Under the pieces are notes generated by a model that ran no database searches, was not told where the DNA came from, and saw only the letters and a program-made list of their open reading frames with translations. The translations under genes were made by a program, and so were the position numbers. Below, in pieces: positions 33,625-50,837 of a stretch of DNA of 64,000 bases (the first letter of the stretch is position 1; every line of letters begins with the position of its first letter). This stretch comes from Syntrophaceae bacterium (GTDB taxonomy: Bacteria > Desulfobacterota > BSN033 > UBA1163). The stretch lies in NCBI GenBank assembly GCA_013388635.1, contig JACAEX010000080.1, positions 5,803 through 69,802 on the forward strand. The letters run 5' to 3'.

Positions 33625-34632
33625 TCACTTGAAGTGTTCAAAACCCAGGCGATCAGGTGAATATTCTCTTCCATCTCTTTGGACGATGCGGAGTCCTTTT
33701 TTTCGATGGACAATTTCTCCGATACGGGTGATCGGTATCCTTAAGGAGTGGGATAGGGTTAAGATCTCCTTCCTCTTTTCTGGAGGTGCAGTGAAAAGGA
33801 GTTCGTAATCCTCACCTCCGGCAAGGGCGATCTCATAAAGATCTTTCGAATAGGAGCGGATCCACTTCCGGTAAGGCCTCGAGAGGGGAAGCTGTTCCTC
33901 CCGGATCCGAGCCCCTACCTTGCTCTCTTTCAGGAGATGGGTTGTATCGATCAGGAGGCCATCACTGACATCGATCATCGCCGTTGCCAGACGATGGCCT
34001 GCAATCGCCTGGCCCAATTCGATTCTCGGTCGGGGAGAGAGGTGCTTCTCAATCAATCGGCTGGCGTCTCCCTTCGCTCCTCCTTTCTCAAGCATCCTTA
34101 GCCCCAGAGCAGCGTCGCCCAGTGTTCCAGAGACAAAGAGATCATCGCCGACTCTTGCCCCTTTTCTGAAGAGAAGGCCTCCTTTCGTTCCTTCTCCGAG
34201 GAGGCAGATGTTGATGATGATCCTCGGAGAGAGCGAGGTATCCCCTCCCACAAGATCGACTCCGAAGCGCCTCGAGCCGTCTTTTAACCCGCGGTAGAAT
34301 GAGGTGACAAAGGAAAGGCTGAGGTTCTTTGGAAGACCAAGGGAGATCAGAAAGTATTTCGGCACGCCGCCCATCGCGGCAATGTCGCTGAGATTGACGG
34401 CTATGGCCTTCCTTCCCAATCGGTAAGGATCGCTCCAGGAGCGCTTGAAGTGGATGTCTTCGATGAGGATGTCAGTGGTGGCGAGCAGGACTTTGCGACG
34501 CATCTCGATCACAGCCACGTCATCTCCGATACCTTGGAGCAGGGCCGGATCAGATGAGCCCGTCCACCTTCTGATTCGATCGATGATGCCGAATTCACCT
34601 ATTTCCCGTAGGATTTTGTCAGTCACTCTCAA
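33625..34632 (-). CDS. thiL: thiamine-monophosphate kinase
   Basis: The AIR-synthase-related fold has the ThiL signature (EFGIIDRI...GDDVAVI...LLATTDILIEDIHF...GGDTS). The start is TTG. Confidence 0.8.
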   Translation of the reverse strand: MRVTDKILREIGEFGIIDRIRRWTGSSDPALLQGIGDDVAVIEMRRKVLLATTDILIEDIHFKRSWSDPYRLGRKAIAVNLSDIAAMGGVPKYFLISLGLPKNLSLSFVTSFYRGLKDGSRRFGVDLVGGDTSLSPRIIINICLLGEGTKGGLLFRKGARVGDDLFVSGTLGDAALGLRMLEKGGAKGDASRLIEKHLSPRPRIELGQAIAGHRLATAMIDVSDGLLIDTTHLLKESKVGARIREEQLPLSRPYRKWIRSYSKDLYEIALAGGEDYELLFTAPPEKRKEILTLSHSLRIPITRIGEIVHRKKGLRIVQRDGREYSPDRLGFEHFK

Positions 34633-34649
34633 CTCCGAACTCTGAACTC

Positions 34650-37001
34650 CTAACTCCTATTCTTGGCGAGAGCGATCCGTAGGACTTCGTCCATATGTTT
34701 GACGGGCAGAAAGTCGATCTTCTTCCGGACGTAGGATGGAAGATCGGTAAGGTCCTTCTTGTTCAGATATGGGATGACAACCTTCTTGATATTGTTTCGC
34801 AAGGCGGCCAGGGCCTTCTCCTTCAGCCCCCCTACCGGCAGGACCCTTCCCCTCAGGGTGATCTCACCCGTCATGGCTACGTCTTTTCGGATGGGAGTAC
34901 CGGTGAGGACGGAGATCAGGGCGACAGCCATGGTAATCCCTGCGGAGGGCCCATCCTTCGGAATAGCCCCGGCAGGGACATGGATATGGATCTCCTTGTT
35001 ATTGAAGGCCTCGGGCTTAATCCGATACGCCTTGCTTTTCGAGCGGGCGTAAGTCAGGGCGGCCTGGGCCGACTCCTTCATCACCTCTCCCAGGTGACCC
35101 GTGAGGATGAGATTGCCCTTGCCCGGAGTGGTGGAGGCCTCCACATGAAGGATTTCACCACCGGTCTCTGTCCAGGCCAGACCCGTGGCCACGCCGATTT
35201 CATTCCGCTTCTGTTCTTCATCGGGTAAGAAGGGGGGAGGGCCCAAAAATCGATGAATATTTCTGGTATGGATGACGGTCTTTTCTTTCTTTCCCTCTGC
35301 CACTTTCCTTGCTACCTTCCGACAGATGGAGGCCAGTTGCCTCTCAAGGTTCCGAAGGCCTGCCTCCTGAGTATATTGAGAGATGATCTGGAGGATCGCC
35401 TTATCGGAGATCTGGAGTTCCTTCGGGCTGATCCCATTCTCCTCCATCTGCCGTGGCAGGAGGAAGGTTCGGGCGATCTTAACTTTTTCGATATCGGTGT
35501 ATCCGGGAAGGTGGATGATCTCCATCCGGTCTCTGAGAGCGCTCGGGATGGGATCGGTCAGGTTCCCTGTCGTGATAAACATGACCTTGGAGAGATCGAA
35601 GGGAACGTTGAGGTAATGGTCGCTGAACGCATAGTTCTGCTCCGGGTCGAGGACCTCCAGAAGGGCAGACGCGGGGTCTCCACGGAAGTCATTCCCGATC
35701 TTGTCCACCTCGTCCATCATAAAGACTGGGTTATTGGTACCGGCCTGTTTGATCGATTGGATGATCCTTCCTGGCATGGCACCGATATAGGTCCGGCGAT
35801 GTCCGCGTATCTCAGCCTCGTCCCGAATTCCGCCGAGGGAGATCCTGACAAATTTCCTGCCCAGCGCTCTGGCGATCGATCTTCCCAGAGAGGTTTTTCC
35901 CACTCCTGGGGGGCCGATGAAGCAGAGGATGGGCCCCTTCATCTTTCTCTTCAATTTGCGAACGCTCAGGAATTCTAAAATGCGTTCTTTCACCTTTTCC
36001 AGGTTGTAATGATCCTCATCCAGGACCTTCTTGGCCTTTCGAATATCGAGGCTGTCGACGGTCGATCTGGACCAGGGCATCTCCACCAGCCAGTCGAGGT
36101 AGGTGCGGACCATGGAGGCCTCTGCCGCATCGGGATGCATCTGCTCCAACCGACTCAGTTCGCGTCGGGCCTCCTTCTCCACCTCTTTTGGCATATTTGC
36201 CTTTTTGATCTTCTGACGAAGTTCTCTCAATTCCTTGGTCCGTTCATCCACCTCTCCGAGTTCACTTCGGATGGCCCTCATCTGCTCTCGGAGAAAGTAT
36301 TCCCTCTGACTTTTTGTGATCTCCTCCTTTGCCTGGGACTGGATCTTCGCCTGCATGGTGAGGACCTGGACCTCTTTTCCGAGAACCTCGTTGAGTGCCC
36401 GAAGTCTCTGGACAGGGTCGAAGATCTCCAGAATCTCTTGGGCCTTCTCCACGGTCAAATCCAAATTGGAGGCAACCAGATCAGCCAATCTTCCGGGATC
36501 GTCGACGCTTTCGAGGACGAACATCAGATCGGGCGAAAGGAGCTTTCCGTAAGAGACGATCCTCTCCAGCTGTTCTTTGACATTCCTCATCAGGGCTTCG
36601 GTCTCAAGGGTGATCTCCGTAATGAAGGGGTCTTTTATATTTTCTAACCTCACAAGAAAGAAAGGGGTGGTCCGGAGGACTTCTTTGATCGAGGCCTTGG
36701 AGAGACCCTGGATGAGGATCTTGACCTTTCCGTCAGGAAGCTTAAGCATCTTCATCACGATGGCCACTGTGCCCACTTGATAGAGGTCTTTCAGGGAGGG
36801 TTCCTCTTCGTTAAGATTTTGTTGGGCCACCAGGAAGATCAGTCGGTCCTTGGAGAGGGCCTCTTCCAGCGCCTTGATCGATTTTTCCCGGCTTATAAAG
36901 AGGGGGAGGACCATATAAGGAAAGACGACGATATCCCTGACGGGAAGGAGAGGAAGTGTTTCAGGAAGGGAGAGCAGGTCTTGTTCAGATCTTTTTTCCA
37001 T
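34650..37001 (-). CDS. lon: ATP-dependent Lon protease
   Basis: 783 aa. LON N-domain, AAA+ motifs ([11 protein letters not shown]) and the proteolytic Ser-Lys dyad region (PKDGPSAGI). Confidence 0.95.
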
Positions 37002-37473: not shown

Positions 37474-37526
37474 TGATTTCCTCTATTGAAACCGTATCAG
37501 ATTTAATACCCACAGTCAACGACCTA

Positions 37527-37768: not shown

Positions 37769-37823
37769 CTGGTGAAATTTTGTCTTGACAAGAATAATTA
37801 TCCGTGATACCAGAATCTTTAAA

Positions 37824-37851
37824 ATATATTAAAAATATTTTTTTAATATAT
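37824..37851 (+). promoter_or_regulatory. AT-rich palindrome ATATATTAAAAA-tat-TTTTTTAATATAT upstream of gntR
   Basis: Near-perfect dyad 25 nt upstream of the GntR ATG. It could be a candidate autoregulatory operator or an UP element. A TTGACA sits at about 37785. Confidence 0.3.
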
Positions 37852-37875
37852 CGGAATGGACGTCGGAGATAGGTC

Positions 37876-38520
37876 ATGAAGAGGAACGCCAGGAGCAAGA
37901 AAGCCGTTGTTTACGAGAACCTGAAGAACAGGATTATCAACAACCTCATCAAGCCAGGGGAACCTCTCAATGAGGGCAGCCTTTCAAAAGAGCTTAAAAT
38001 CAGCAAAACCCCGGTCAGGGAGGCACTGCAGCAGCTTGAAAAGGAGGGGTTTGTTGAAAATATCCCCGTAAAGGGAGCTTTCGTCTCCAAGATTTCTGTT
38101 CAGGACATCAGAGAGCTATTCGAGATAAGGGAGATCTTGGAATGTGAGGTGATCAAGCGGGCGGTGAACAAGGTGGATCCAGCCAAGGTCAGACTCCTCA
38201 GGGATAGGTTCGTCTCTTCCGAAAGCGAGAATAGCCGATCTGCTCCGAGTCACTTCAGGTCCGGAGATCAGATCCATACCTTTATTTTTGAGACCTTCGG
38301 GAACCGTCGTTTAATGGAGATTTATAAAAGGCTTCAGGATCATGTGGTCAGAAACCGCATCTTTTTCTTCGATCAATCACATCCGGGGCGGTCCGAAGAG
38401 TCCTTTAAAGAGCACCTGGAGATATTGGATGCCTTAGAGGCAAAAGATCCTTTAAGAGCGGAGCAGGCGGTCAGAAGCCACCTCAGAAACTCCTTAGAAT
38501 ATCTGAAAAAGATCTTATGA
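37876..38520 (+). CDS. GntR-family transcriptional regulator (FCD domain)
   Basis: 214 aa. HTH LSKELKISKTPVREALQQLEKEGFV plus an FCD C-domain. Confidence 0.8.
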   Translation: MKRNARSKKAVVYENLKNRIINNLIKPGEPLNEGSLSKELKISKTPVREALQQLEKEGFVENIPVKGAFVSKISVQDIRELFEIREILECEVIKRAVNKVDPAKVRLLRDRFVSSESENSRSAPSHFRSGDQIHTFIFETFGNRRLMEIYKRLQDHVVRNRIFFFDQSHPGRSEESFKEHLEILDALEAKDPLRAEQAVRSHLRNSLEYLKKIL

Positions 38521-38550
38521 AACAAAGAGTCGAGAGGGAGGGATCCATCC

Positions 38551-39222
38551 GTGATCCATGTCATCACCCAGATTGAGAGGCCTCCAAAGGAATTGATCGA
38601 TCGATTTCGTGGGATCGGGACGGCTACCGTTCATGAAGCATCCGGGAGAAAGGGGGCGGTCGATCCGGCGATCAAGCCGATCAGCAGAGGGGTTCGGATC
38701 TGTGGTCCTGCTTTCACGGTTCAGTGCCATCCCCTGGACAACCTGATGCTCCACAAGGCTCTGGAAAAGGCTCAGCCTGGAGATGTCCTGGTGGCAACGG
38801 TTGGAGGACATTATGAAGGCGGCTATTTCGGGGGGTTGATGGCCACCTCCGCCCTCGCCAAAAAGATCGGGGGTTTGGCGATTGACGGGTGCATCCGGGA
38901 TTCTGCTGAAATCATCAGAATGGGATTTCCGATATTCTGCCGTGGGTTCTGCATTCGTGGAACGACCAAGACGGTCCTGGGTTCGATCAATCATCCAACT
39001 CTTTTTGGTGGGGTCTTGGTCAACCCCGGCGATTTGATCCTCGGGGATGATGACGGCATGGTTGTTGTTGAGCGGACAGAATCCGAAGAGGTACTGGAGA
39101 AATCGATCAAAAGGGCAGAGGCGGAGAAGTTGAAATCGGAGAAACTGAAAGCCGGGATCTCCAGCGTCGAGCTGAACCAATTGGAAAAGGTCTTCGAATT
39201 TTTAGGCCTGGTTGAAGGTTAG
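38551..39222 (+). CDS. RraA-family protein (4-hydroxy-4-methyl-2-oxoglutarate aldolase / oxaloacetate decarboxylase-like)
   Basis: 223 aa. RraA/MenG-like fold motifs (GDVLVATVGG...GGLMA...IDGCIRD). GTG start with a GAGAGGGAGGG RBS. Confidence 0.7.
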   Translation: MIHVITQIERPPKELIDRFRGIGTATVHEASGRKGAVDPAIKPISRGVRICGPAFTVQCHPLDNLMLHKALEKAQPGDVLVATVGGHYEGGYFGGLMATSALAKKIGGLAIDGCIRDSAEIIRMGFPIFCRGFCIRGTTKTVLGSINHPTLFGGVLVNPGDLILGDDDGMVVVERTESEEVLEKSIKRAEAEKLKSEKLKAGISSVELNQLEKVFEFLGLVEG

Positions 39223-39226
39223 TTTC

Positions 39227-40273
39227 ATGAAAATTCAGGTAGAAAAATTGAAGGAGGCCTCGGTCCAGATCCTAAGGGGGTTAAAGGCCACCGATGAGGA
39301 GGCAGCCTTGGTGGCAGAGTGTCTGGTCCGGGCCGAGATGAGGGGGATCGATACCCACGGGGTCTATTTTTTGAAACTTCTATCGGACCGGATTGATGCT
39401 CAGATGATCCGTATTCCCACCGCTCTGAAGGTGATCCGCGAAGACAAGACGACTGCGGTCCTCGACGGAGGGAATGGATTAGGCCAGGTCGCCGCTCATC
39501 GGGCCATGAAGATGAGCATTCAAAAGGCCCGGGATTTCGGGACGGGAATGACACTCATCCGAAACACAAACCATGTCGGTATCCTTGCCTTCTATACTCT
39601 CATGGCGGCTGAGCAAGGAGTGGTCGGAATCATGATGAGCAATTCAGCCCCTTCGATGTCCCCCTGGGGAGGGGCAGAGCCTTTTTTAGGGACGAACCCA
39701 CTCTCCATTGCCATTCCAGGCGGTTTAGATGGTCCTGTCGTGCTGGATATGTCGTCGAGCGTCGTTGCCCGGGGAAAGATTCGACGGGCCGAGCGAATGA
39801 AGGAAAGCATCCCCTTGGGTTGGGCTCTCGATGAGACAGGGTCTCCAACCACAGACCCTGCGGCTGCCCTAAGGGGTACGCTCCTGCCTATCGGGGGTCC
39901 AAAGGGGTATGGCTTGGCCCTGATGATCGATATCCTTGCCGGCCTGCTTTCCGGTTCGCGGTATGGCCCTGAGGTCAAGACGTTTCACCAGCCCGAGGGA
40001 CCAACCGGAATCGGCGTCTTCACCATGGCCATCGATATTGAGAGATTTATGCCTCTTCCCCAATTCAGACGATTGATGGAATCTTACGTCACATCGATCA
40101 AGGGGACGAGGAAGGCGAAAGGGGTTTCCAGGATCTATCTACCAGGAGAGATCGAACGCGAAAAAGAGAAGCAGAGCTCAGCAGAGGGGATTGAGATTGG
40201 TTCAGAGCTGGCAAAGGATCTGAACACCCTTCTTCAAAAAGCTGGGAGCCGGCTGAGATTGGGGGAAGAGTAG
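39227..40273 (+). CDS. Ldh_2-family NAD(P)H-dependent oxidoreductase (malate/L-sulfolactate/ureidoglycolate dehydrogenase-type)
   Basis: Family motifs are present (GIDTHG...NHVG...GTNPLSIA...GGPKGYGLALMIDILAG). The ATG at 39227 is preferred over the tracked TTG at 39212. Confidence 0.8.
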   Translation: MKIQVEKLKEASVQILRGLKATDEEAALVAECLVRAEMRGIDTHGVYFLKLLSDRIDAQMIRIPTALKVIREDKTTAVLDGGNGLGQVAAHRAMKMSIQKARDFGTGMTLIRNTNHVGILAFYTLMAAEQGVVGIMMSNSAPSMSPWGGAEPFLGTNPLSIAIPGGLDGPVVLDMSSSVVARGKIRRAERMKESIPLGWALDETGSPTTDPAAALRGTLLPIGGPKGYGLALMIDILAGLLSGSRYGPEVKTFHQPEGPTGIGVFTMAIDIERFMPLPQFRRLMESYVTSIKGTRKAKGVSRIYLPGEIEREKEKQSSAEGIEIGSELAKDLNTLLQKAGSRLRLGEE

Positions 40274-40280
40274 AAGGGCC

Positions 40281-42011
40281 ATGAAGTGGATTATTCGAGT
40301 CAATACGAGAACCGGGAAGATTACGAAGCAGGAGGCCTCAGCCGAGGAGAGGCGATGGGGAGGCCGACTGCTGGTCTCAAAATTCCTTCTGAGAGAGGTC
40401 CCTCCCACATGCGATCCCCTTGGACGTCACAACAAGCTGATCATCGCCCCAGGGCTCTTAGGAGATACCCTGGTGACTACGGCCGGCAAGTTTTCAGTTG
40501 GAGGCAAGAGCCCGCTGACGCGTGGCGTTAAGGAGAGCGATGTCGGAGGAGAGGCCGGGAAGAAGATGGCCAGGCTCGGGATCAAGGCCCTGGTGCTGGA
40601 GGATATTCCTGAAAGAGCCGTGACGAAGATCCTCACGATCACCGCGAATCAAATCGCGCTCTCCGATTCTCCTGAGTTGGGAGGGAAGCCTGTCTCGGAG
40701 ACGATTCAACTCCTCCGGAGGCGCTTCGGTGGCCAGGTCGGAATGATCTGCATCGGCCCCGCGGGAGAGATGAAGATGGCAAGCGCAGGTGTAGCGGTGA
40801 CCGATGTCCAGGATGTACAGATCCGCTACGCGGCCAGAGGAGGGCTGGGCGCGGTGATGGGCTCCAAAGGGATTAAGGCGATCGTCGTGGATGATGCAGA
40901 GGCTGTGCCGGTTCAGGTTTCTGATGAGGCCCTTCTTCGAGAGGCAAGCAAAGCCCTGGCTCAAGCCATCTTAGCCGATCCCAAGACAGAAAACAGACAT
41001 CGGTATGGAACCCCTGCAATCCTCATGGTGGCAAATGAAATCGGCCTTCTTCCAACTCGAAATTTCAGCGCGGGTCAGTTTGAAAAAGCAGAGGAGATCG
41101 CTGGAGAACGGATCGCCGAAGTGATCGGGGCGCGTGGGGGGGAGGGGTGTTCAGGGGCACCCTGTTTGAGAGGCTGCGTGATTTCATGCTCCAATGTCTT
41201 TCCAGACCCATCGGGGAAGAAGACGGTTGCCTCGATCCAATATGAGAACATCGCCCTTCTTGGGCCAAACTGTGGGATTGGCGACCTTGACAGCATCGCG
41301 GAGCTGAACCGTCTTTGCAATGAGGTGGGTGTGGATACGATCGAGACCGGAGCTGCGATAGCGGTCGCCATGGAGGCCGGGGTGATTTCATTCGGTGACG
41401 CCCAAGGGGCCAAAGACCTGGTTCGGCAGATCGGCCAGGGCACCTACCTTGGACGGATCCTTGGAAATGGGGTGGTGATCACGGGCCGCGTATTGGGCGC
41501 AAGGCGTATCCCGGCTGTTAAGGGTCAGGCGATTCCAGGCTATGATCCTCGTGCATTGAAGGGCAACGGCGTCACCTACATCACTTCTCCAATGGGAGCG
41601 GACCACACCGCCGGAAATGCCTTCGAGACCGCTCAGTCCATCAATCCAATCGGTAAAGAAAATCAGGTTGAGATTTCGAGGAGGCTTCAGATCAGAGCAG
41701 CTATCCTCGACACCATGGGCCTATGTCTTTTCACTCGGCCTCCCTTTGTAAAGAGACCAGAACTCTTTGCTCATTTCTTGAGGGGACGCTACGGATGGAA
41801 CGTGGGTTACGAAGACGTCCAGCGAATTGGGATCGATGCGCTGGAGACAGAAAGAGAGTTTAACCGGCGTGCCGGGGTTTCAGAAGAGTTTTATGATATT
41901 CCGGAATTCATGAGGGAAGAACCGCTGCCTCCGAGAAATTCTGTTTTCGACCTCTCTCTGGAGGAGGTGCAGCGAATCTGGGAGGTCAAGATCCCGAACG
42001 ATATGTTTTAG
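40281..42011 (+). CDS. aldehyde:ferredoxin oxidoreductase (tungsten/molybdopterin AOR family)
   Basis: 576 aa. AOR N-domain (MKWIIRVNTRTGKITKQE...) and the C-terminal domains with CxxC 4Fe-4S ligands (RGGEGCSGAPC...C). Confidence 0.9.
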   Translation: MKWIIRVNTRTGKITKQEASAEERRWGGRLLVSKFLLREVPPTCDPLGRHNKLIIAPGLLGDTLVTTAGKFSVGGKSPLTRGVKESDVGGEAGKKMARLGIKALVLEDIPERAVTKILTITANQIALSDSPELGGKPVSETIQLLRRRFGGQVGMICIGPAGEMKMASAGVAVTDVQDVQIRYAARGGLGAVMGSKGIKAIVVDDAEAVPVQVSDEALLREASKALAQAILADPKTENRHRYGTPAILMVANEIGLLPTRNFSAGQFEKAEEIAGERIAEVIGARGGEGCSGAPCLRGCVISCSNVFPDPSGKKTVASIQYENIALLGPNCGIGDLDSIAELNRLCNEVGVDTIETGAAIAVAMEAGVISFGDAQGAKDLVRQIGQGTYLGRILGNGVVITGRVLGARRIPAVKGQAIPGYDPRALKGNGVTYITSPMGADHTAGNAFETAQSINPIGKENQVEISRRLQIRAAILDTMGLCLFTRPPFVKRPELFAHFLRGRYGWNVGYEDVQRIGIDALETEREFNRRAGVSEEFYDIPEFMREEPLPPRNSVFDLSLEEVQRIWEVKIPNDMF

Positions 42012-42106
42012 AGGAGGGCGAAGGAAGAAGTTCGGAGTTATGAGTTCAGAGAAGGAGACGAGGATCAGAGGAGCGTTCTTTGTCCGAGAAAAAGGAGGGC
42101 TCTTAG

Positions 42107-42853: not shown

Positions 42854-42910
42854 ATCTCCTGCCTCTCCTCTGAAGGAAAAGGCGGGCGGAAATCTGAAAA
42901 TTAGGAGACG

Positions 42911-43273
42911 ATGATGTCCGAGCTAAAAGTTGTCCATATGAAGGATGTGAAAGGCGAGCGTCGAGACCCTCCCCGAATGTCGTGGATCCTCGTTTCTGAA
43001 AAGACCGTGGGGTCGCAGAATCTGGCCATGGGAGTCAACGAGACCTATCCAGGGGGCATGGTACCGGAACACAAGCATGAGAATGAAGAGGAGGTCATGT
43101 TTTTTGTTTCAGGGAGAGGAGTCTTTGTGACTGAAGACAGGGAGATTCCCCTTGAGCCAGGCGTCTGCATCTACAATCCGCCCGGCAAGCTTCACCAGAT
43201 TTTGAATACGGGGGACGAGGTCTTGAGATTCATCTGGATCTATTCCCCGCAGTTACCCAGCCATAGGAAGTGA
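42911..43273 (+). CDS. cupin-domain protein
   Basis: 120 aa. Cupin motifs G(x)5HxH(x)3-4E...G and PxGxxHxxxN (PEHKHENEEEVMFFVSGRG...PPGKLHQILNTG). Confidence 0.7.
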   Translation: MMSELKVVHMKDVKGERRDPPRMSWILVSEKTVGSQNLAMGVNETYPGGMVPEHKHENEEEVMFFVSGRGVFVTEDREIPLEPGVCIYNPPGKLHQILNTGDEVLRFIWIYSPQLPSHRK

Positions 43274-43313
43274 TGGTGAAAGGTAAAAAGTATATTAAAT
43301 GAGGAGGATAAAG

Positions 43314-44279
43314 ATGGGAAATTGGAAGTTACCACCGGAAGGCGGGCACATGGATAAGCCCAGCAAGATCTATTTCCAGACGATGACGAAAAAGGATGTG
43401 GAGGAGCGGCTTAAGAAGAACGATCTGATCCTCATCCCGCTCGGCTCCACAGAGAACCATGGAGCGGCCGGTCCCTACGGCGAGGATATCTTTATGGTGA
43501 CCCGAATGGCAGAGGAGGTGGCCAGGGTAACCGGGTGTACGGTCGCTCATCCGGTCTGTTACGGATCCCACCCCTATCATCATTTGGGACAGCCCGGAAC
43601 CGTCGTCATTCCGGACGATGTCTTCTCCGCTTATCTCAGGGCGATCATGGCCGGTTTCTGGAACACGGGTTTCCGGAAACAGATCTTCATGAGCCTCCAC
43701 GGCCAGGAGTATATCGTCCCCTCGGCGATCAATGAGTTCGGGAAGAAGTACCAGGTCCCTGCGATCATCATCTTCCTCGACATCCCGAGGATCATGGGAG
43801 ACACCTTAAAGGATAAGGCCCACGGAGGCCCTTATGAGAATCCGTTCCAGCATGCCTGTGAAGCAGAGACCTCCCTCTCGATGGCCCTCTTCCCTGAGAT
43901 GGTCAAGCTCGAAGATGCCGAGGACAATACACCCTGGGGATTTTTGCCTCCGGGCCATCTGGACAGGGGAGGGGACATCTACGGGAATCCGATCCCAGGC
44001 CATTGCCAGATCGGTTGCGGCGGCATTGAATGCGTCATCTATCCTGAGGGGGTCATCGGAAAGCCCTCGCTGGCCGACCCGAGAAAGGCATACAAGAGCG
44101 TTGAAGTCTACCTCGATTATGTGAAGAAACTTCACGACGATATTATGGCCAAGTTTCCTGCAGGGGTGTTGCCTGAGAGCAAATATTTGAGCCAGCGACC
44201 CAAGGAGGAGATTGAGGCTCTCCTGAAGGGCCCGATGAAAGGTGGAAGGCATCTCTATACCGTAGCCTTTCCGCCATAA
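43314..44279 (+). CDS. creatininase-family amidohydrolase
   Basis: LIPLGSTENHG motif of the creatininase family, with a GAGGAGG RBS before the ATG at 43314. The tracked ORF starts at 43299. Confidence 0.75.
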   Translation: MGNWKLPPEGGHMDKPSKIYFQTMTKKDVEERLKKNDLILIPLGSTENHGAAGPYGEDIFMVTRMAEEVARVTGCTVAHPVCYGSHPYHHLGQPGTVVIPDDVFSAYLRAIMAGFWNTGFRKQIFMSLHGQEYIVPSAINEFGKKYQVPAIIIFLDIPRIMGDTLKDKAHGGPYENPFQHACEAETSLSMALFPEMVKLEDAEDNTPWGFLPPGHLDRGGDIYGNPIPGHCQIGCGGIECVIYPEGVIGKPSLADPRKAYKSVEVYLDYVKKLHDDIMAKFPAGVLPESKYLSQRPKEEIEALLKGPMKGGRHLYTVAFPP

Positions 44280-44354
44280 CGAATAACCGCATTGAACAAA
44301 GGATATTCCTACGCTCTGCCCTTTGCGATTCGCGATTCAAAGAGGGGGATTTTT

Positions 44355-45386
44355 ATGAAAGCGATTATTAAGGCAAGTCAGGAGGCAGGATCTCTTGAGG
44401 TCAAAGAGCTTCCCGTGCCAAAGCCGGGTCCGGGTGAAATCCTTGTCCAGATGAAGGCTGCGGGGATCTGTTACAGCGATGTGATGATCCTCACGAATAA
44501 GTATAAAGGGAGAGTGCCTGTTCCCATCCCGTTGATCATGGGACATGAGGGAGCAGGCGTGGTGGCAGAGGTGGGTCAAGGGGTGGGTCACGTTAAGCCT
44601 GGAGACAGAGTAGGACTCAATCCCCTGTGGGGCTGCGGGCAATGTGTAAACTGTCTGAACGGATTTCCGAACATGTGTATGCAGTGGAGACACCTTGGCA
44701 TCACCTGCGACGGGACGTTTGCCGAATACCGGGTGGTGCCTGATTTTGTCGCTTACAAATTGCCGGAAAGCATTTCGATGATCGATGCTGCATTTCTTGA
44801 GCCCATCAGCCTGACCGTCCGAACCCTCGAGCATGTGAGACCCATGGTAGGAGATACCGTGGCCATCATTGGCCCTGGGTCGATCGGCATGTTTCATCTC
44901 CAGGCCTTTAAGTCAGCCGGAGCTTCGGTCGTCATCGTGATCGGTCTTGATCAGGATGCGAAACGATTTGAGGTTGCGAAGAGGCTTGGGGCGGATTTGA
45001 TTGTCAACGGCAGCAAAGAGGATGTGGTGAAACGGGTCAAAGAGATTACAAACGGGGCAGGGGTGGATATCGTGGTGGAGACAGCCAATCATCCTTCAAC
45101 CGTTCCTCTTGCCATCAACCTGGCAGCCGCCAGAGGCCGTGTGGTTCTCTTCGGTCTCTATCCCGAGGCCACCATGAGTCCGCTCACCTTTTTGAGGAGT
45201 GGTCTAACCATGGCTGGAGATGTGGCAGTCGTTCCAAGACAGTTTCTCAGAGCCATCCGCTGGGTGGAACATAAGAAGGTGTTGGCTGAGCCGATGATTA
45301 GCCGACGGTTTAAGCTGGATCAGGCGAAAGAGGCATTCGAGGCTTTTTACCAGGGAGATATTGTAAAGGTGCCTTTTGAGATGTAG
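44355..45386 (+). CDS. zinc-dependent alcohol dehydrogenase (MDR family, threonine/sorbitol dehydrogenase-like)
   Basis: GHEGAG zinc site, GCGQCVNCLNG structural zinc Cys4, and GPGSIG NAD motif. Start at the internal ATG 44355 with an AGAGGGGG RBS. Confidence 0.85.
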   Translation: MKAIIKASQEAGSLEVKELPVPKPGPGEILVQMKAAGICYSDVMILTNKYKGRVPVPIPLIMGHEGAGVVAEVGQGVGHVKPGDRVGLNPLWGCGQCVNCLNGFPNMCMQWRHLGITCDGTFAEYRVVPDFVAYKLPESISMIDAAFLEPISLTVRTLEHVRPMVGDTVAIIGPGSIGMFHLQAFKSAGASVVIVIGLDQDAKRFEVAKRLGADLIVNGSKEDVVKRVKEITNGAGVDIVVETANHPSTVPLAINLAAARGRVVLFGLYPEATMSPLTFLRSGLTMAGDVAVVPRQFLRAIRWVEHKKVLAEPMISRRFKLDQAKEAFEAFYQGDIVKVPFEM

Positions 45387-45516
45387 GGGCTTTCCCAGAA
45401 AAAAGATTCCTCACTTTGCTTGGAAAGAGAAACGACCTCTCCCCGTCCGAGGCGAAGCTGAGGCAATCTACTTTGGGTATCAACCGGGGAGGGATTAAAG
45501 AAAGGAGGAAGGAGAG

Positions 45517-46548
45517 ATGAGAAGGTTTCAGTTGTTTTCAGGTATCATGGTCGGTCTGTTTGTCATAGCCTTGGCCATTGCGCCTGCTTGGGCGGCTCCC
45601 ATTGAGATCAAGTTTGGCCATGTCGATCCACCCGATGTCTGTACATCCAAAAAGGGAGCGGCCGGCGCAGCCTTTAAGAATATTGTGGAGGCTGAAACAG
45701 CGGGTGGCGTAGAGGTCAAGGTCTTTCCGGCCGGTCAGCTCGGCGGAGAGCGGGAGTTGATCGAGGCCACCAAACTTGGGACCATCCAGATGTGCATGGT
45801 CTCTGCGGCAATCGCAGGATATTATAAGGAAGCCCAGGTGCTGGATATTCCCTATCTCTTTTCTTCGGCTCCTGTTGCCTGGAAGGTGATGGATGGCCGG
45901 TTTGGAAAAGAGATGGCAGAGGACTGTCTGAAGAAGACAGGAATGCGAGTCCTGGCCTACGGAGAGACGGGGTTCAGGAACTTCACCACCTCGGTCCGGC
46001 TGATCAAATCGCCTGCCGACATGAAGGGCCTGAAAATCCGAGTCATGGAGAGCCCGGTCTATATCAATATGGTCAAGGCGCTTGGAGCTGCTCCCACTCC
46101 GATCGCCTGGCCTGAGACCTATACCGCTCTTCAACAGAAGGTCGTGGATGGCCAGGAGAATCCGGTTTCCGTGATCCTTTCCGTCAAATTTTTTGAGGTT
46201 CAAAAATACCTGACGCTCGATGGCCATTCCTACGGTGTGGATTTCATTCTGATCAACGATAAATTTTTCCAGGGCCTTCCCAAAGAGACCCAACATATCC
46301 TAAAGACAGCGGCCATCAATGCCGGCCTGATCGGAAGGGGGATTCAACAACTCAACTCAGCCATTGGGGTCTCCCAATTGAAAGAAAAGGGGATGGAGGT
46401 CTATTCTCCCAATCCCAAAGAAAGGGCGATGTTCCGGGAGGCAGCGCAGAAGCCGGTCATGGAGTACATCGAAAAGCAGATTGGAAAGGCCTGGATCGAT
46501 AAATTGATGAAGGCGGTAAAAGAGGCTGAGGCTGAATTGGCCAAGTGA
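45517..46548 (+). CDS. dctP: TRAP transporter substrate-binding protein DctP family (second system)
   Basis: 343 aa. Signal peptide, DctP family, with a strong AGGAGGAAGGAGAG RBS. Confidence 0.85.
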   Translation: MRRFQLFSGIMVGLFVIALAIAPAWAAPIEIKFGHVDPPDVCTSKKGAAGAAFKNIVEAETAGGVEVKVFPAGQLGGERELIEATKLGTIQMCMVSAAIAGYYKEAQVLDIPYLFSSAPVAWKVMDGRFGKEMAEDCLKKTGMRVLAYGETGFRNFTTSVRLIKSPADMKGLKIRVMESPVYINMVKALGAAPTPIAWPETYTALQQKVVDGQENPVSVILSVKFFEVQKYLTLDGHSYGVDFILINDKFFQGLPKETQHILKTAAINAGLIGRGIQQLNSAIGVSQLKEKGMEVYSPNPKERAMFREAAQKPVMEYIEKQIGKAWIDKLMKAVKEAEAELAK

Positions 46549-46623
46549 TCTGACGGAATCCCCCCGATCCCTCTCAACAAAGGAGGGGGAGGGGGGATTG
46601 AAACGAGGGGATTGTCTTTAGCC

Positions 46624-47133
46624 ATGGAGAAATTTCAAAACCGGATCCTCCGGGTCGAAGAGGGTTTACATGGGTTGATGAGGTGGACCCTTTTTCTGAT
46701 TACAGGGGCTATGACTGGGATCGTCCTCCTCGGGGTTCTCTTTCGGTATATCCTGAGAGCTCCACTTCCCTGGTCAGAGGAATTGGCCCGATATCTGATG
46801 GTATGGGGTGCCTCTCTTGGGGCCTCGGTCGCCTACCGGGAGGGAGCCCATATCGCGATCACCATCCTCGTTGATAAGTTCCACGGGATGACGGGTCGGG
46901 TGATCACATCGATCACTCAAATCATCGTCATTGTCTTTATGACCATCATCGTGTTCAAGGGGTTTGTTCTTGTTTTTGAGCTTTCAGGACAGACCTCTCC
47001 TGCGATGGAGATTCCCATGGCGTGGCCCTATTTGGCGATTCCCGTCGGTTGTCTCTTCATTCTCTTTGAGGCCGTCATCACCACGTTTTGGAAGGGCCAG
47101 CGTATGGGAAAGAAAGGGACGGAGCCCTTATGA
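46624..47133 (+). CDS. dctQ: TRAP transporter small permease DctQ family (second system)
   Basis: Start at ATG 46624 (MEKFQNRILRVEEGLHGLMRWTLFLITGA...). Four TM segments. ATGA overlap with dctM. Confidence 0.75.
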   Translation: MEKFQNRILRVEEGLHGLMRWTLFLITGAMTGIVLLGVLFRYILRAPLPWSEELARYLMVWGASLGASVAYREGAHIAITILVDKFHGMTGRVITSITQIIVIVFMTIIVFKGFVLVFELSGQTSPAMEIPMAWPYLAIPVGCLFILFEAVITTFWKGQRMGKKGTEPL

Positions 47134-48413
47134 ATCTCCTGATCGCGATCAGCTTTTTCGTGTCTTTGGCGTTGGGGATTCCCATTGCCTTTGTGATGGG
47201 AATCAGCGCTTTGGCAGCCCTCTTTGCGCTGCCCAATGTGCCACTCCACCTGATCCCTCAGCGGCTCTTCACAGGCATGGACTCTTTTCCCATCATGGCC
47301 GTCCCCTTCTTTATCCTCGGTGGTGATCTGATGAACGCTGCAAAGATTACGGACCGGATTCTTGATTTTTCCAAGCTGCTGGTGGGGAGGATCCGGGGCG
47401 GGCTGGGCCATGTCAATATTGTGGGCAGCATGTTTTTTGCTGGGATCAGCGGTTCCGCAGTGGCGGATGCCTCATGTCTTGGGTCCATACTGATTCCGGC
47501 CATGCAAAAGGATGGTTATGAGGTTCATTACGCCTCTGCGATCACCGCGTCAGCAGCCATCATCGGTCCGATTATCCCTCCGAGCATTCCCATGGTGGTG
47601 CTTGCCCTGGTGGCGAACCTCTCCGTAGGGGCGCTCTTTTTAGGCGGGGTGCTGCCAGGGGTTTTTATCGGGCTGGGATTGATGGCGGTGAACTATGTGA
47701 TCTCAAGAAGAAGAGATTATGCGAGGGTTAACCAACCCCTGACGTTCAGGATATTTTTCAGTACCCTTATCGGCGCCATCATTCCTCTTCTGATGCCGCT
47801 GATCATCATGGGAGGAATTCTGAGCGGGGTTTTCACCCCTACGGAAGCGGCTTCCATTGCTGTGGCCTATGCCCTTTTTGTGGGGTTCTTCGTTCTTCGG
47901 ACCCTCACGCTGAAAGACCTTCCGAGGATCTTTTTCAGGAGCGCGGTCGCTACCAGCACGATCCTGATTGTGATGGCAATGGCCAATGCCTTCAGCTGGA
48001 TTCTGGCGACCCAGCAGATCCCTCAACAGGTTAGCCAGTTCATCTTTTCCATCTCCAGGGATCCTTATGTCATCCTTTTTCTGATCAATATCTTTCTCCT
48101 GATCGTGGGTTGTTTCCTGGAGGGGCTGGCCGCCATCATTCTGATCGTCCCGATCCTCATGCCTGTGGTGACACAGCTTGGAATCCACCCCATCCATTTT
48201 GCCCTGATCGTGGTGGTCAACCTGATGATCGGTCTCCTGACACCGCCCCTGGGGCTCTGCCTCTTTGTGGTCTGCGGTATTTCCAAGATAAAGCTCGGGC
48301 CCCTTTTTAAAGAGGTCGTCCCATTCCTGATCGTGGAGATCGTCATTCTATTCGTGATCACCTATATGCCCTGGTTTACGCTGACCCTTCCTCGCCTGTT
48401 TAAGCTTTTGTGA
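47130..48413 (+). CDS. dctM: TRAP transporter large permease DctM family (second system)
   Basis: Start at ATG 47130 (MNLLIAISFFVSLALGIPIAFVMG...). Paralogous to dctM at 3141. Confidence 0.85.
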   Translation: MNLLIAISFFVSLALGIPIAFVMGISALAALFALPNVPLHLIPQRLFTGMDSFPIMAVPFFILGGDLMNAAKITDRILDFSKLLVGRIRGGLGHVNIVGSMFFAGISGSAVADASCLGSILIPAMQKDGYEVHYASAITASAAIIGPIIPPSIPMVVLALVANLSVGALFLGGVLPGVFIGLGLMAVNYVISRRRDYARVNQPLTFRIFFSTLIGAIIPLLMPLIIMGGILSGVFTPTEAASIAVAYALFVGFFVLRTLTLKDLPRIFFRSAVATSTILIVMAMANAFSWILATQQIPQQVSQFIFSISRDPYVILFLINIFLLIVGCFLEGLAAIILIVPILMPVVTQLGIHPIHFALIVVVNLMIGLLTPPLGLCLFVVCGISKIKLGPLFKEVVPFLIVEIVILFVITYMPWFTLTLPRLFKLL

Positions 48414-48472
48414 CCCCTGTTTTACCGATTTCAGACTTGACAATCCTCCGGGATTCCTTTAGTTTTTAAAAA

Positions 48473-49078
48473 ATGAAAAACCGTCTCATCCTGGCCTCAA
48501 GGTCTCCCCGTCGATATGAGTTGCTCAAACAAATCGGTCTTGATTTCGATGTGATCCCGAGCGGGATCGAAGAGGACTTCGTTCCTGACGAGTCTCCCAG
48601 GGAACATGTGATTCGATTGGCAGAGGCAAAGGCCTTCGATGTAGGGAACCGATACCCTGACCGTTGGGTGATTGCCGCGGATACCATGGTCTATGTGGAT
48701 GGTGATGTCTTAGGAAAGCCGAAGACCATGGAAGAGGCCATGGAGATGTTGAAACGCCTCAGCGGAAGGGAACACCGGGTGTTGACCGGATTTTCTGTCC
48801 GGCACTTTGGGAAAGGGATCCGAGATCAGGAGGCGGTCGAGACGGCGGTGAGGGTGAAGGGCCTGACACCTGCTGAGATGGACTGGTATGTCCGGACAGG
48901 AGAGCCTTTTGATAAGGCAGGAGGTTATGCGATTCAAGGGATCGGATCCTTCATGATCGAGTCGATCCGGGGATCATACACCAATGTGGTGGGCCTTCCG
49001 GTCTGCGAGGTGATTCAGATGCTCAATCGCCTGGGGGCCCTGACCATTGCAGATTTCAGATTGCAGATTTCAGATTGA
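48473..49078 (+). CDS. maf: Maf-family nucleoside triphosphate pyrophosphatase
   Basis: LILASRSPRR...GKP...ADTVV-type Maf motifs (ILASRSPRRYELLKQIG; IAADTMVYVDGDVLGKP). Confidence 0.85.
   Translation: MKNRLILASRSPRRYELLKQIGLDFDVIPSGIEEDFVPDESPREHVIRLAEAKAFDVGNRYPDRWVIAADTMVYVDGDVLGKPKTMEEAMEMLKRLSGREHRVLTGFSVRHFGKGIRDQEAVETAVRVKGLTPAEMDWYVRTGEPFDKAGGYAIQGIGSFMIESIRGSYTNVVGLPVCEVIQMLNRLGALTIADFRLQISD
49049..49076 (+). repeat. 2 x 14-bp tandem repeat (GCAGATTTCAGATT; heptad AGATTNC x4) inside the maf 3' end
   Basis: The plus strand reads gcagatttcagatt gcagatttcagatt and encodes the Maf C-terminal IADFRLQISD. It ends at the yggS TTG start. Confidence 0.7.
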
Positions 49079-49761
49079 ATATGTCATCCATCAAAGAAAA
49101 TTATGTAAAAGTGATAGAGCGAGTGGAGAAGGCAGCGAAGAGATCGGGAAGAGATCCAAAGGAGATCAAGCTGGTTGCTGTCTCCAAGACGGTGGAGCCT
49201 GCTCGCATCAAAGAGGCCATCGAGGCCGGAGTCTCCATTCTTGGTGAGAACTACGTTCAGGAGGCGCAGAGGAAGATCGAGGAGATCGGTCGATCAGTCT
49301 CCTGGCATTTCATCGGACACCTTCAATCGAACAAGGCAAAGTATGCGGTCCGACTTTTTGATATGATACACTCTTTGGACAGTATCGCCCTGGCCGAGGA
49401 GTTGAACCGGAGAGCTGAAAGAGAAGGCAAGGTGATGGAAGTGATGATCGAGGTCAATCTCTCCGGAGAGGCCAGCAAATTTGGTGCGGAAGGTGAGAAG
49501 GCCTTGGACATCGCAAGAAGGGTTCTGGATCTTAAGAATCTTTCATTAGTGGGATTGATGACCATGCCACCCTACTTCGATTCGCCTGAGATGAGCAGGC
49601 CATACTTCATTCAACTTCGAGAGTTAAAGGAGAGGATGGCAGCGCAAGGCATCTCTCTAAGGGAGCTTTCCATGGGCATGTCGAATGACTTTGAAATCGC
49701 CATCGAAGAAGGGGCCACCTATGTGAGGGTGGGAACAGCGATCTTTGGACCACGAAGATGA
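49075..49761 (+). CDS. yggS: YggS-family pyridoxal-phosphate homeostasis protein
   Basis: PLP-binding lysine context (KLVAVSKT) and the alanine-racemase N-domain-like barrel. TTG start overlapping the maf stop. Confidence 0.85.
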   Translation: MNMSSIKENYVKVIERVEKAAKRSGRDPKEIKLVAVSKTVEPARIKEAIEAGVSILGENYVQEAQRKIEEIGRSVSWHFIGHLQSNKAKYAVRLFDMIHSLDSIALAEELNRRAEREGKVMEVMIEVNLSGEASKFGAEGEKALDIARRVLDLKNLSLVGLMTMPPYFDSPEMSRPYFIQLRELKERMAAQGISLRELSMGMSNDFEIAIEEGATYVRVGTAIFGPRR

Positions 49762-50837
49762 ACAAAAGAGTTCAAAGTTCAAAGTTCAAAGTTCGAAGTT
49801 TTAAGTCCCAATTGGGAAGTATCACCCTTCTTGGAATAGTATTGATGATATTAGGTGGTTGTGGTGTGAAGGGGCGGCCTGTTCCCTGGGAGACAGTTGT
49901 TCCCAAGAGGATCGTCGACCTTGAGGCCATTCCGCGGGATGGCCATCTTCTCTTGGAATGGACCTCTCCAAAGGAGAATACCGACAAATCACCTCTCGTT
50001 GATCTGGTCAAGTTTCAAATCTTCAGGTCAGAAGGGATTCTCGTCGAGGACGGATGCAAGGGATGTGGGGAGAGAAGGAGAGTGGTCTATGAGATGAAGT
50101 TGGAGGGGAAGGAGGAGATGAAGAGCAGAAGGATGTCCGTCCTGCTTGAGGATCATGAGGCGAGAAGGGTCTATGTCTACGAGGTGGTTTCCATCAACCG
50201 GCGAGGGCACCCCAGTTCTCCCTCCAATCCGGTTTGGGTCTATTGGGATCATCCACCCGAACCACCGAAGATGTTGAAAGGAGAAGGAGGAGATAAGAGG
50301 GTGGACCTCTCATGGGAAGCCGTGGAGGAGGCAACAGGGTATAACGTTTACAGAAGGTTGGCGGACGAGGCCTTTCCGACCAGGCCTCTCAACAGAGAGC
50401 CTCTGACTGTGACCGGGTATACAGATCTCAATGTGGAGAATGAAAAGCAGTATATCTATTCCGTCAGGGCATTGAGACGGGTGGTCAAGACCGATGTTGA
50501 AGGAAAGGGGTCTCCTGACCTTCCGGTCACCCCTGTGGATCTCGTTCCACCCAGCGCTCCTCTGGGCCTTACGGCCATCCCTGTCAAAAATGGGATAGAG
50601 CTGAGCTGGAACAGGAATCGAGAGCCGGACCTGTTGGGTTATTACGTTTACCGGAGAAAGTCAGGGGAGAGGGACTTCAAGAGATTGCATGAGACTCCTC
50701 TGGAGAAGGAGGCCTACTTTGACACTCAGGTTGAGTTGGAGCAGAATTATGACTATGCGGTGACGGCAGTGGATAACTCGGCCCGAAGAAACGAAAGCCC
50801 ATTGTCTGAGGAAGTGAGAGTGAAATATATCTATTGA
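49758..50837 (+). CDS. lipoprotein with three fibronectin-type-III-like repeats
   Basis: Lipobox LGGCG. There are three repeats of about 100 aa, each with LxW...GYxVYR...PL...Y.D........Y.Y.V.A.D..G..S. Confidence 0.6.
   Translation: MNKRVQSSKFKVRSFKSQLGSITLLGIVLMILGGCGVKGRPVPWETVVPKRIVDLEAIPRDGHLLLEWTSPKENTDKSPLVDLVKFQIFRSEGILVEDGCKGCGERRRVVYEMKLEGKEEMKSRRMSVLLEDHEARRVYVYEVVSINRRGHPSSPSNPVWVYWDHPPEPPKMLKGEGGDKRVDLSWEAVEEATGYNVYRRLADEAFPTRPLNREPLTVTGYTDLNVENEKQYIYSVRALRRVVKTDVEGKGSPDLPVTPVDLVPPSAPLGLTAIPVKNGIELSWNRNREPDLLGYYVYRRKSGERDFKRLHETPLEKEAYFDTQVELEQNYDYAVTAVDNSARRNESPLSEEVRVKYIY
49769..49800 (+). repeat. heptad tandem repeat (AGTTCAA)x4.5 at the 5' end of the lipoprotein gene
   Basis: The plus strand reads agttcaa agttcaa agttcaa agttcga agtt and encodes KFKVRSFKS near the N-terminus. 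Confidence 0.7.

Follow-up and report, generated by a model that had tools for sequence, protein, structure and literature searches.

Along a 64,000-nucleotide (nt) stretch of contig JACAEX010000080.1 from a Syntrophaceae bacterium (positions 5,803 to 69,802 of the forward strand, hereafter the window), short head-to-tail arrays of seven-nucleotide units of the form AGTTCNR lie at the boundaries of genes, which raises the question of what these arrays are and what they might do for the genes on either side. For 35 years, short heptamer repeats have been reported from the gaps between genes of bacteria (cyanobacteria, Beggiatoa and Geobacter), and to our knowledge no function has been established for them. 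From comparison of the window with related metagenomic loci, we consider it rather probable that the AGTTCNR arrays belong to a slippage-prone heptamer family that fills spacers between genes, most likely as structured or Shine-Dalgarno (SD)-bearing cis spacers that tune the downstream gene.

The original prediction, made from the letters of the window, described three copies of the same array at three loci. Direct reading of the sequence bore out the coordinates of all three AGTTCNN arrays, which are not copies of one another: they are three differing arrays built of related units. Array 1 is on the minus strand between lon and thiL (34624-34660; units GGAGTT-A, GGAGTT-C, AGAGTT-C, GGAGTT-G and AGAGTG, the whole reading AGGAGTT AGGAGTT CAGAGTT CGGAGTT GAGAGTG), its core at 34657-34631 reading GGAGTTA GGAGTTC AGAGTTC GGAGTT; array 2, on the plus strand in the spacer between the AOR and SDR genes (42029-42051), is short and imperfect (AGTTCGG AGTTATG AGTTCAG AG); and array 3, also on the plus strand, at the 5' end of a lipoprotein gene (49769-49807), comprises 4.6 copies of AGTTCAA at 96% match (49769-49800; Tandem Repeats Finder, TRF) followed by a degenerate unit. 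With at most two mismatches allowed, AGTTCNNAGTTCNNAGTT matched the window eight times, always within these three loci, compared to 0.35 +/- 0.64 matches expected from dinucleotide shuffles (0 of 100 shuffles reached eight).

The three loci are real, but at least four further heptamer arrays in the window had gone unlisted, and enrichment thus extends beyond the predicted sites. All four lie on the plus strand within 3.3 kb: 4.6 units of ATTGCAG/ATTTCAG (i.e., CAGATTK units) at the 3' end of maf (49046-49077; TRF, self-match scan), the two arms of a hairpin between the lipoprotein gene and lysA (CAGATTT, 3.9 copies, 50841-50867; AATCTGA/AATTTGA, 4.7 copies, 50885-50917; TRF, RNA fold), and 4.4 units at 79% match between lysA and dapF (TTTCGAG TTTCGAT ATTCGAA TTTCGGA TTT, 52306-52336; TRF, self-match scan). 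Seven and its multiple 14 were the only periods not divisible by three that were enriched in the window by either TRF or the self-match scan, with 5-6 self-matching stretches for period 7/14 versus 0-2 for periods 4, 5, 6, 8, 10 and 11. Short remnants of the same unit vocabulary, below the length at which they would count as arrays, occur directly after the dapB stop (TGTCAAATCTCAAATTT, 53974-54010) and in another spacer (TTGAAATTTTGAAATCCGGAG, 26891-26930).

As relatives we took contigs encoding orthologues of the lipoprotein together with 80 loci from a metagenome scan, from related Thermodesulfobacteriota (denoted by L numbers); the window and about 80 orthologous metagenome loci formed a lineage set of 718 kb. 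In this set TRF returned 151 unique period-7 arrays and a further 48 of period 14, versus 27, 49 and 42 for periods 6, 8 and 9, and 140 of the 206 arrays with periods of 7n (68%) were intergenic or straddled a gene boundary, while non-coding sequence makes up only ~12% of the total. Heptad periodicity is conserved at the same junctions, the arrays recurring across the clade at lon-thiL, the maf 3' end, yggS-lipoprotein, lipoprotein-lysA and lysA-dapF. What had been proposed as a genome-wide family is a real, lineage-wide heptanucleotide family, but one concentrated at the lon-thiL and maf-to-dapF junctions and sparse elsewhere. Nor is AGTTCNR its defining unit: the vocabulary is roughly A-D-T-K-S-R-R, with AGTTCRR as one sub-type beside AATGCGG, ATTTCGG, ATTTCAG, ATTTGGG, TTTCGAA and others, and the units form a connected series (AGTTCGG, AATTCGG, AATGCGG, ATTGCGG, ATTTCGG, ATTTCAG, ATTTGGG etc.) whose members are often mixed within one array.

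The placement of arrays relative to genes follows a rule. For period-7 arrays between co-directional genes of the lineage set, the median distance from the upstream stop codon to the first base of a sense-strand family array is 5 nt (24 of 37 within -6 to +8), and that from the last base of a reverse-complement array to the downstream start is 16 nt (12 of 12 within 0-29), counts that come from a few orthologous junctions sampled repeatedly and are hence non-independent, describing these junctions rather than the genome. The earlier account had recognised the gene-boundary placement of the arrays and overlooked both their anchoring to stop codons and their architecture as inverted pairs, i.e., hairpins, as seen between the lipoprotein gene and lysA. 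There, the 5' arm (50841-50867) starts 3 nt past the lipoprotein stop codon (TGA, 50835-50837), the units of the 3' arm (50885-50917) are the reverse complement of those of the 5' arm, and the 3' arm ends 15 nt upstream of the lysA ATG (50933), with an SD sequence (GGAGG, 50923-50927) just 3' of the stem. The sense-strand RNA of this spacer is predicted to fold at -31.2 kcal/mol (z -2.9), and the widest pair of this fold joins a base in the stop codon, 2 nt ahead of its end, to one 16 nt upstream of the start codon.

This stop-to-start arrangement recurs in the relatives, in which we recovered 44 distinct lipoprotein-lysA spacers with a median length of 106 nt. Their repeats begin at the stop codon (e.g., TGCGGAA TGCGGAA directly after TAA, AGTTCAG AGTTCGG after TGA, and TTTCAGA TTTCAGA after TAA) and usually have a reverse-complement partner just upstream of an SD motif. 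Across the 44 spacers, the widest predicted pair extends from a median of 1 nt past the stop to 15 nt before the ATG, and folding of the spacers yields a median z-score of -3.7. This one junction has complementary arms of at least five unit types (CAGATTT, AATGCGG, AGTTCGG, ATTTCAG and CAATKRN), and the loop of the AATGCGG-type hairpin, GAAAAAATTAAAAACTGATTTCTAAGATTTGA, is common to L139, L161, L164, L171 and L200. Some relatives carry other small repeats within arrays or hairpin loops (at lon-thiL in L139, at 6490-6510 in L002, and at lipoprotein-lysA in L135, L185 and L190), of which one kind is a GC-rich palindrome, CCTGCCTGCGGCAGGCAGG, and the other a palindromic element of ~100 nt (CATTGCGAGG...GCAATGAC) that gene callers translate as MCHCEAEPKQS.

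At the next junction downstream, the dapF start lies 15 nt past the end of the 52306-52336 array, and L002, L003, L129, L137, L142, L163, L190 and L195 bear ATTTGGG, ATTTGAC or TTTCGRA arrays between lysA and dapF. A candidate partner, read from the sequence as a weak and partial inverted repeat (AATCCGAAACAAATCCAAATGAC, 52216-52238, plus strand), lies 27 nt past the lysA stop, and the predicted spacer fold pairs 52219-52229 with ~52300-52311; because its z-score is just -1.7, we regard this partner as tentative. Neither sigma-70-type promoters nor intrinsic terminators were found at array junctions in 48300-53300, and the junctions are thus probably internal to one transcript. The stems themselves are AT-rich and are followed by an SD sequence and a start codon, as opposed to the GC-rich stem-loop and T run of an intrinsic terminator. 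A search of the whole window against Rfam at the gathering threshold yielded no riboswitch or known element at the junctions, its sole hit being a selenocysteine tRNA gene at 14799-14893 on the minus strand (ARAGORN and Rfam, 81 bits).

At lon-thiL, an unpaired array fills the junction from one gene into the next. As predicted, array 1 spans the boundary: the lon stop codon (TAG, 34652-34650) falls inside it, so that it encodes the final two Lon codons and the stop, the 23-nt spacer is wholly repeat-derived, and the thiL start (GTG, 34626-34624) forms the end of the extended array, one degenerate unit beyond the core. The array also supplies a GGAG at 34636-34633, 6 nt upstream of this GTG. 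(For the thiL start we relied on the gene call of L001, a Logan contig from SRR10095340 whose sequence at this junction matches the window exactly.) In the window and in L129, L139, L191, L186 and L174, an AGAGTT-type array with 2-5 units lies across the Lon stop, and other relatives have ATTTGCG or CTATGCG heptamers at this position.

Array 2 was likewise correctly placed between the AOR and SDR genes, inside a 95-nt spacer, where it begins 17 nt past the AOR stop (42009-42011) and ends 55 nt short of the SDR ATG (42107). Having only three units, of which one deviates, it is weaker than the other two AGTTC arrays. The array is not found in the closest syntenic relative, L591, whose spacer is 20 nt; L590 and L596 lack the SDR gene altogether, and in L596 a two-unit remnant (GTTCGGA ATTCGGA) follows the AOR stop. 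We therefore rejected a conserved AOR-SDR array. Arrays are gained and lost at other places too: L591 bears GTAAGGG and CGCTATG arrays between genes that in the window follow closely on one another. The genes around array 2 form part of an 11-kb block between coaD and maf (37876-48413: GntR, RraA-like, Ldh_2, AOR, SDR, cupin, creatininase, Zn-ADH and TRAP DctPQM) that is missing in the otherwise syntenic L004, where lon-coaD directly faces maf, and that adjoins lon-coaD in L591. An AOR homologue of 42% identity is also encoded, together with a small MoaD-like open reading frame (ORF), by L024, a metagenome-assembled genome (MAG) labelled Pseudomonadota, in which, at 2534-2760, an AGTTCGG array of at least nine units follows ~10 nt past the stop; this array contains a scaffold gap of Ns, indicating that the repeat broke the assembly.

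The non-coding arrays change over very short evolutionary distances. Between contigs with 93-99% identity over the final 650 nt of the neighbouring lipoprotein gene we found insertions or deletions (indels) of whole units, 7 or 14 nt long. One 14-nt indel in the 5' arm sets L161/L162 apart from L167 (99% identity), 14 nt in the 3' arm separate L187 and L203, and at lon-thiL a single 7-nt unit distinguishes L176 from L199. In addition, the type of hairpin is swapped between flanks (the lipoprotein 3' end and the lysA 5' end) that are 96-99% identical, such that L139/L164 carry an AATGCGG/ATTTCGG-type hairpin and L151 and L169 the AGTTCGG type, and L178 a CAATTGG-type hairpin and L199 the AGTTCGG type. 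The suggestion that the repeats are hypermutable and polymorphic in length among relatives thus gains support for the non-coding arrays of relatives, with their changes of 7 or 14 nt, but not for the array inside the lipoprotein gene, which shows no variation in copy number.

This array 3 is translated. The lipoprotein ORF (49758-50837) opens with an ATG that overlaps the yggS stop as ATGA (49758-49761), and the array, starting 7 nt after the yggS TGA, occupies codons 4-15, confirming its placement inside the 5' end of the gene; it encodes the Lys-rich n-region, VQSSKFKVRSFKS, of the signal peptide. The lipoprotein has an fn3 domain and is probably exposed at the surface. Among seven distinct orthologous sequences with an in-frame AGTTCAA array, the distance from the ATG to the lipobox Cys codon is 102 nt in each. 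The first three units are nucleotide-identical in the window, L003 and L004, whose proteins are just 66-72% identical, and the array region is identical in L004-L007, which come from four different samples. Concerted T-to-C changes are shared by adjacent units (AGCTCAA in L145, L158, L175 and L186). Five other relatives (L136, L137, L159, L183 and L204) have at yggS-lipoprotein an untranslated array of AGTTCGG AGTTAAG AGTTCGG, closely like arrays 1 and 2 of the window, in forward orientation between the yggS stop and the ATG, just upstream of the start codon; still others have AGGTTRA/TTAACCT or CCAAATY/ATTTGGR inverted heptamer pairs, or different repeats. Unstable non-coding arrays beside a translated array of fixed length would fit a reading frame that keeps intrinsically unstable repeats in check.

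The array at 49046-49077 encodes the C-terminal tail of Maf and enters its stop codon (TGA, 49076-49078), and L004, L149 and L186 carry other heptamers (GATGGCA type) at the same position. Homologues of the lipoprotein number 704 and are nearly all metagenomic, those with names belonging to Thermodesulfobacteriota or to 'Deltaproteobacteria RBG_16_48_10' MAGs. The public call for the lipoprotein gene (P0001, 330 aa) begins at Met30 (MILGGCG) and so loses the n-region of the signal peptide; the called start is 29 codons too late, and the ATG at 49758 is conserved in seven orthologues. In relatives, gene callers read through upstream repeat hairpins, resulting in spurious N-terminal extensions such as NTKFQTNSNYQISKFQT...WSLEIGICDLFGIW.

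Beyond the anatomy of the arrays, their conservation at particular junctions, the variation of their units, the cassette-like replacement of hairpins and the frozen length of the coding array, all of which these comparisons demonstrate, we propose how the arrays might work. An array begins at or a few bases from the upstream stop codon, at times extending into the coding sequence, and either reaches the next start codon and supplies a GGAG SD-like motif, as at lon-thiL, or has an inverted partner by the downstream ribosome-binding site. Paired arrays would fold the ~100-nt lipoprotein-lysA spacer such that stop and start sit at the base of one hairpin. Arrays gain or lose whole units, homogenise internally, and give way to hairpins of other types over very short evolutionary distances. 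Acting in cis on a polycistronic mRNA, they would set the translational coupling or the transcript stability of the downstream gene, and mutation could tune this effect by changing how many units there are: a terminating ribosome would have to melt the first units of the 5' arm, freeing the SD-adjacent sequence and favouring the coupling of termination to reinitiation, or, alternatively, the hairpin stem could protect or target the transcript.

Several observations weigh against this reading. In 38 lipoprotein-lysA spacers, the advantage of the sense over the antisense strand in predicted folding is not significant (23 versus 15 in favour of sense; Wilcoxon p = 0.12), so that folding does not distinguish a role at the RNA level from one at the DNA level or from none. 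Among 42 spacers, the SD was fully unpaired in 13 and at least half paired in 18. Three ADTKSRR units with at most one mismatch gave 12 matches at five window loci compared to 0.45 expected, with a pattern drawn up after inspection of the data; the positional counts are non-independent, as noted above; and array 2 has no counterpart in L591. In the 325 kb lying more than 3.5 kb from the lipoprotein gene, there was no excess of period 7 at low copy number, and at three or more copies period 7 held only a modest lead (8 of 15 non-coding arrays), with period 8 next. Finally, template-switch repair of quasi-palindromes could by itself produce complementary arms, with no selection involved. Two narrower proposals were discarded: a model of pure SD unmasking is unsupported, as the SD is neither consistently masked nor exposed, and uniform genome-wide enrichment is rejected by the TRF counts outside the maf-to-dapF neighbourhood.

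We also asked how far AGTTC arrays reach beyond this lineage. In contigs representing one genome per species, 3.6 units of AGTTCNN matched at least 120 species versus ~4 expected by simple arithmetic; the matches listed came from Acidobacteriota, Planctomycetota, Bacteroidota, Verrucomicrobiota, Cyanobacteriota and others, and were mostly intergenic and often inverted pairs. Permuted cores of the same composition, however, produced 58, 113 and 92 matches in viral contigs versus at least 120 for AGTTC, indicating that heptamer arrays of any sequence are common, and we dropped the idea of a homologous cross-phylum AGTTC family. By crude ORF calls, AGTTC arrays across phyla show no strand bias (22 co-oriented with, and 31 antisense to, both flanking genes).

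This commonness bears directly on whether the arrays do anything at all. If they were neutral simple-sequence junk, i.e., by-products of slippage tolerated in spacers and dispensable protein tails, with polymerases seeming to favour 7-nt units and template-switch correction of quasi-palindromes keeping the arms complementary, no cis-regulatory role would be needed. Heptanucleotides are the commonest class of long simple sequence repeats (LSSRs) in many prokaryotes (Mrazek 2007, as reported in PMC4679880), which would suit such an origin, as would the yield of the permuted 5-mer cores, the fast turnover of unit type, the empty AOR-SDR spacer of L591 and the lack of folding asymmetry between strands. 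Yet the same four or five junctions are occupied across a clade whose proteins diverge to ~65% identity while most other spacers are empty, the positions of arrays are tied to stop codons and those of their partners to the ribosome-binding site, and the three leading AGTTCAA units stay identical despite the divergence of the proteins; we therefore rate neutrality as a possibility, though a rather doubtful one. The concentration on few junctions could reflect iterated protein-binding sites, at the DNA level (IHF/HU-like) or the RNA level (S1, Csp or CsrA-like), serving a small regulon that includes lon-thiL and maf-to-dapF. Many units do create GGA or GGAG every 7 nt (AGTTCGG, AATGCGG or ATTTCGG followed by A), the inverted pairing of arrays across spacers of differing length recalls the class 3 sites of Geobacter metallireducens (PMC2700814), and for TAACTGA repeats binding of S1, Csp or CsrA-like proteins to RNA has been proposed (PMC4679880). 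But CAGATTT, AATGCGG, AGTTCGG and CAATTGG, which occupy one orthologous junction, are too unlike for a single sequence-specific binder, AGTTCAA, CAGATTT and TTTCGAA units contain no GGA, and the window holds no candidate binding-protein gene linked to the arrays, all of which makes this explanation improbable.

The swapping of non-homologous hairpins between 96-99% identical flanks could mean that each inverted pair with its loop might be a mobile cassette, a small element like a miniature inverted-repeat transposable element (MITE) or a repetitive extragenic palindrome (REP), whose insertion would fall in the gap from a stop codon to the ribosome-binding site that follows. Each hairpin type does have a recognisable layout of loop and arms in distant relatives (e.g., the AATGCGG-type loop), and other small palindromic elements insert into loops. 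We nevertheless give cassettes little credence: the 64-kb window contains no second copy of any complete hairpin, neither target-site duplications nor a transposase or REP-associated tyrosine transposase (RAYT) gene were seen, homologous recombination via the conserved flanking genes accounts for the replacement equally well, and the unpaired arrays at lon-thiL and the lipoprotein 5' end do not fit. Over the 64 kb of the window, no repeated whole hairpin of the kind expected of REP elements, bacterial interspersed mosaic elements or MITEs was seen, and cassette-like replacement was seen in relatives. A unit whose length is not a multiple of three within codons 4-15 of a probable surface lipoprotein also recalls a contingency locus, in which gain or loss of a 7-nt unit would switch the lipoprotein on or off by frameshift. 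Non-coding arrays of the same family do vary by whole units, and heptanucleotide repeats drive phase variation in Haemophilus influenzae (PMC12721329); frame-shifting polymorphism, however, was absent among the seven distinct orthologues, all in frame at exactly 102 nt, and the four samples with identical arrays, L001 is identical to the window, and the 4-5 copies are fewer than in typical contingency loci, leaving phase variation very improbable. At the other extreme, the arrays might constitute a dedicated, selected, evolvable, operon-internal 'rheostat' in place of tolerated junk: stop-to-start hairpins of 7-nt modules would collapse a ~100-nt spacer and let a terminating ribosome reinitiate at the following gene, slippage of 7 or 14 nt and cassette exchange would keep retuning this coupling at a fixed set of junctions (lon-thiL and maf-yggS-lipoprotein-lysA-dapF), and a factor that recognises the repeats may also take part; in this strong form, the proposal seems to us unlikely. 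Cis spacers that are structured or carry an SD and tune the downstream gene are the reading we prefer.

The canonical units of the cyanobacterial short tandemly repeated repetitive (STRR) sequences are STRR1 CCCCAGT, STRR2 TTGGTCA and STRR3 CAACAGT. The analogy to these heptamers drawn in the original prediction proved apt, as STRR heptamers likewise form intergenic hairpins between cistrons, and the hairpin between hupS and hupL has been proposed to affect transcript stability or translational coupling, with its function unproven (PMC2670836). Both systems consist of 7-bp units in short, tandem, intergenic or intercistronic arrays, with hairpins between co-transcribed genes. They differ in phylum (here Thermodesulfobacteriota) and in their units (here AGTTCRR, CAGATTT, TTTCGAA and others), and, unlike STRR sequences, the arrays described here are anchored to stop codons and turn over in unit type at a single junction between close relatives.

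TAACTGA direct repeats, for which a translational role was proposed, occur in marine Beggiatoaceae and some Cyanobacteria and Bacteroidetes (MacGregor 2015, PMC4679880). As in our arrays, there are 2-6 heptamer copies, mostly intergenic and often in forward orientation just upstream of a start codon, and some overlap the end of the upstream ORF, as here at lon-thiL. Read from the opposite strand, TAACTGA becomes AGTTATC, which differs from AGTTCTC at a single base; some arrays of other phyla (L021, L022 and L058) combine the two units. However, when arrays are oriented by the gene that follows them, our sense strand is AGTTCNN, i.e., the one opposite to TAACTGA, inverted pairs are common here and almost never seen in TAACTGA repeats (one case in BOGUAY), BOGUAY has essentially one unit in place of the many related ones found here, and TAACTGATAACTGA with at most two mismatches had no match in the window, which thus contains no TAACTGA array.

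Geobacter metallireducens, a member of the same broad phylum-level group (the former Deltaproteobacteria), has paired sites of which class 3 comprises five heptanucleotides MTYCTGA and class 1 the octanucleotide GTTGCTYN (Aklujkar 2009, PMC2700814). Like the arrays of the window, these are opposite-strand tandem pairs, separated by a spacer that varies in length, and lie between the genes of biosynthetic operons (such as proBA in Geobacter). They were interpreted as IHF/HU binding sites (PMC2700814), a reading backed by no more evidence than exists for the window arrays; stop-to-start anchoring and unit turnover are undescribed for them. AATCTGA, in the 3' arm downstream of the lipoprotein gene, is the nearest unit, with 6 of 7 positions identical to MTYCTGA, and three MTYCTGA units with at most three mismatches per 21 nt had no match in the window. 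Membership of either the TAACTGA or the MTYCTGA family by unit sequence is therefore rejected. The window also contains a period-8 array, ATAATGGA, of 3.8 copies followed by an inverted copy (15280-15340, in the spacer 15235-15362), with a predicted hairpin of -43 kcal/mol (z -5.9); this pair resembles the G. metallireducens octamer pairs and lies in a divergent intergenic region, and is thus not intercistronic. Repeats of the GGAGGCGGT type with periods of 9, 18 and 48 (12738-12890) lie inside an ORF on the minus strand (12362-13186) and presumably encode a low-complexity protein segment.

The best experimental model is the hmw locus of H. influenzae, where a transcribed (ATCTTTC)n repeat constitutes one arm of an RNase III-processed hairpin in the 5' untranslated region that tunes hmw1A expression (PMC12721329): a transcribed heptamer repeat sits in a hairpin arm, and its copy number post-transcriptionally tunes the downstream gene. 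At hmw, 11 or more copies occupy the 5' untranslated region downstream of a promoter and pair with a non-repetitive, G-rich arm, and dependence on RNase III has been demonstrated experimentally, whereas the arrays described here have 3-5 copies, are repetitive in both arms and are intercistronic. They likewise have the traits of LSSRs, a class with units of 5-11 nt in which heptanucleotides are the most abundant, members turn up sporadically across the phylogeny and are proposed to originate by slippage (Mrazek et al. 2007, cited after PMC4679880), in that they consist of non-random head-to-tail heptamers with a preference for non-coding sequence and, in relatives, change by whole copies. LSSRs, however, are a purely statistical class that predicts neither junction-specific conservation nor stop-codon anchoring nor paired arms. 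On sequence criteria, then, the arrays would be assigned to the heptanucleotide LSSRs, with an architecture like those of STRR sequences, TAACTGA repeats and the G. metallireducens sites and the unit sequence of none of them.

In the literature that we searched, the anchoring of arrays to stop codons, the clade-wide occupancy of specific junctions and the turnover of cassettes between near-identical genomes appear to be undescribed. For annotation, the finding means that heptamer arrays mislead gene callers, give Lon and Maf variable C-terminal tails, and can break assemblies. For the biology of these organisms, the arrays provide a natural experiment, in which arrays sit at the same operon junctions in dozens of related genomes from metagenomes, with units that vary in number and type between near-identical relatives while the translated array is frozen in length. 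It thereby becomes possible to ask whether unit number tunes translational coupling or mRNA stability, and whether the arms are kept by selection or by template-switch repair.

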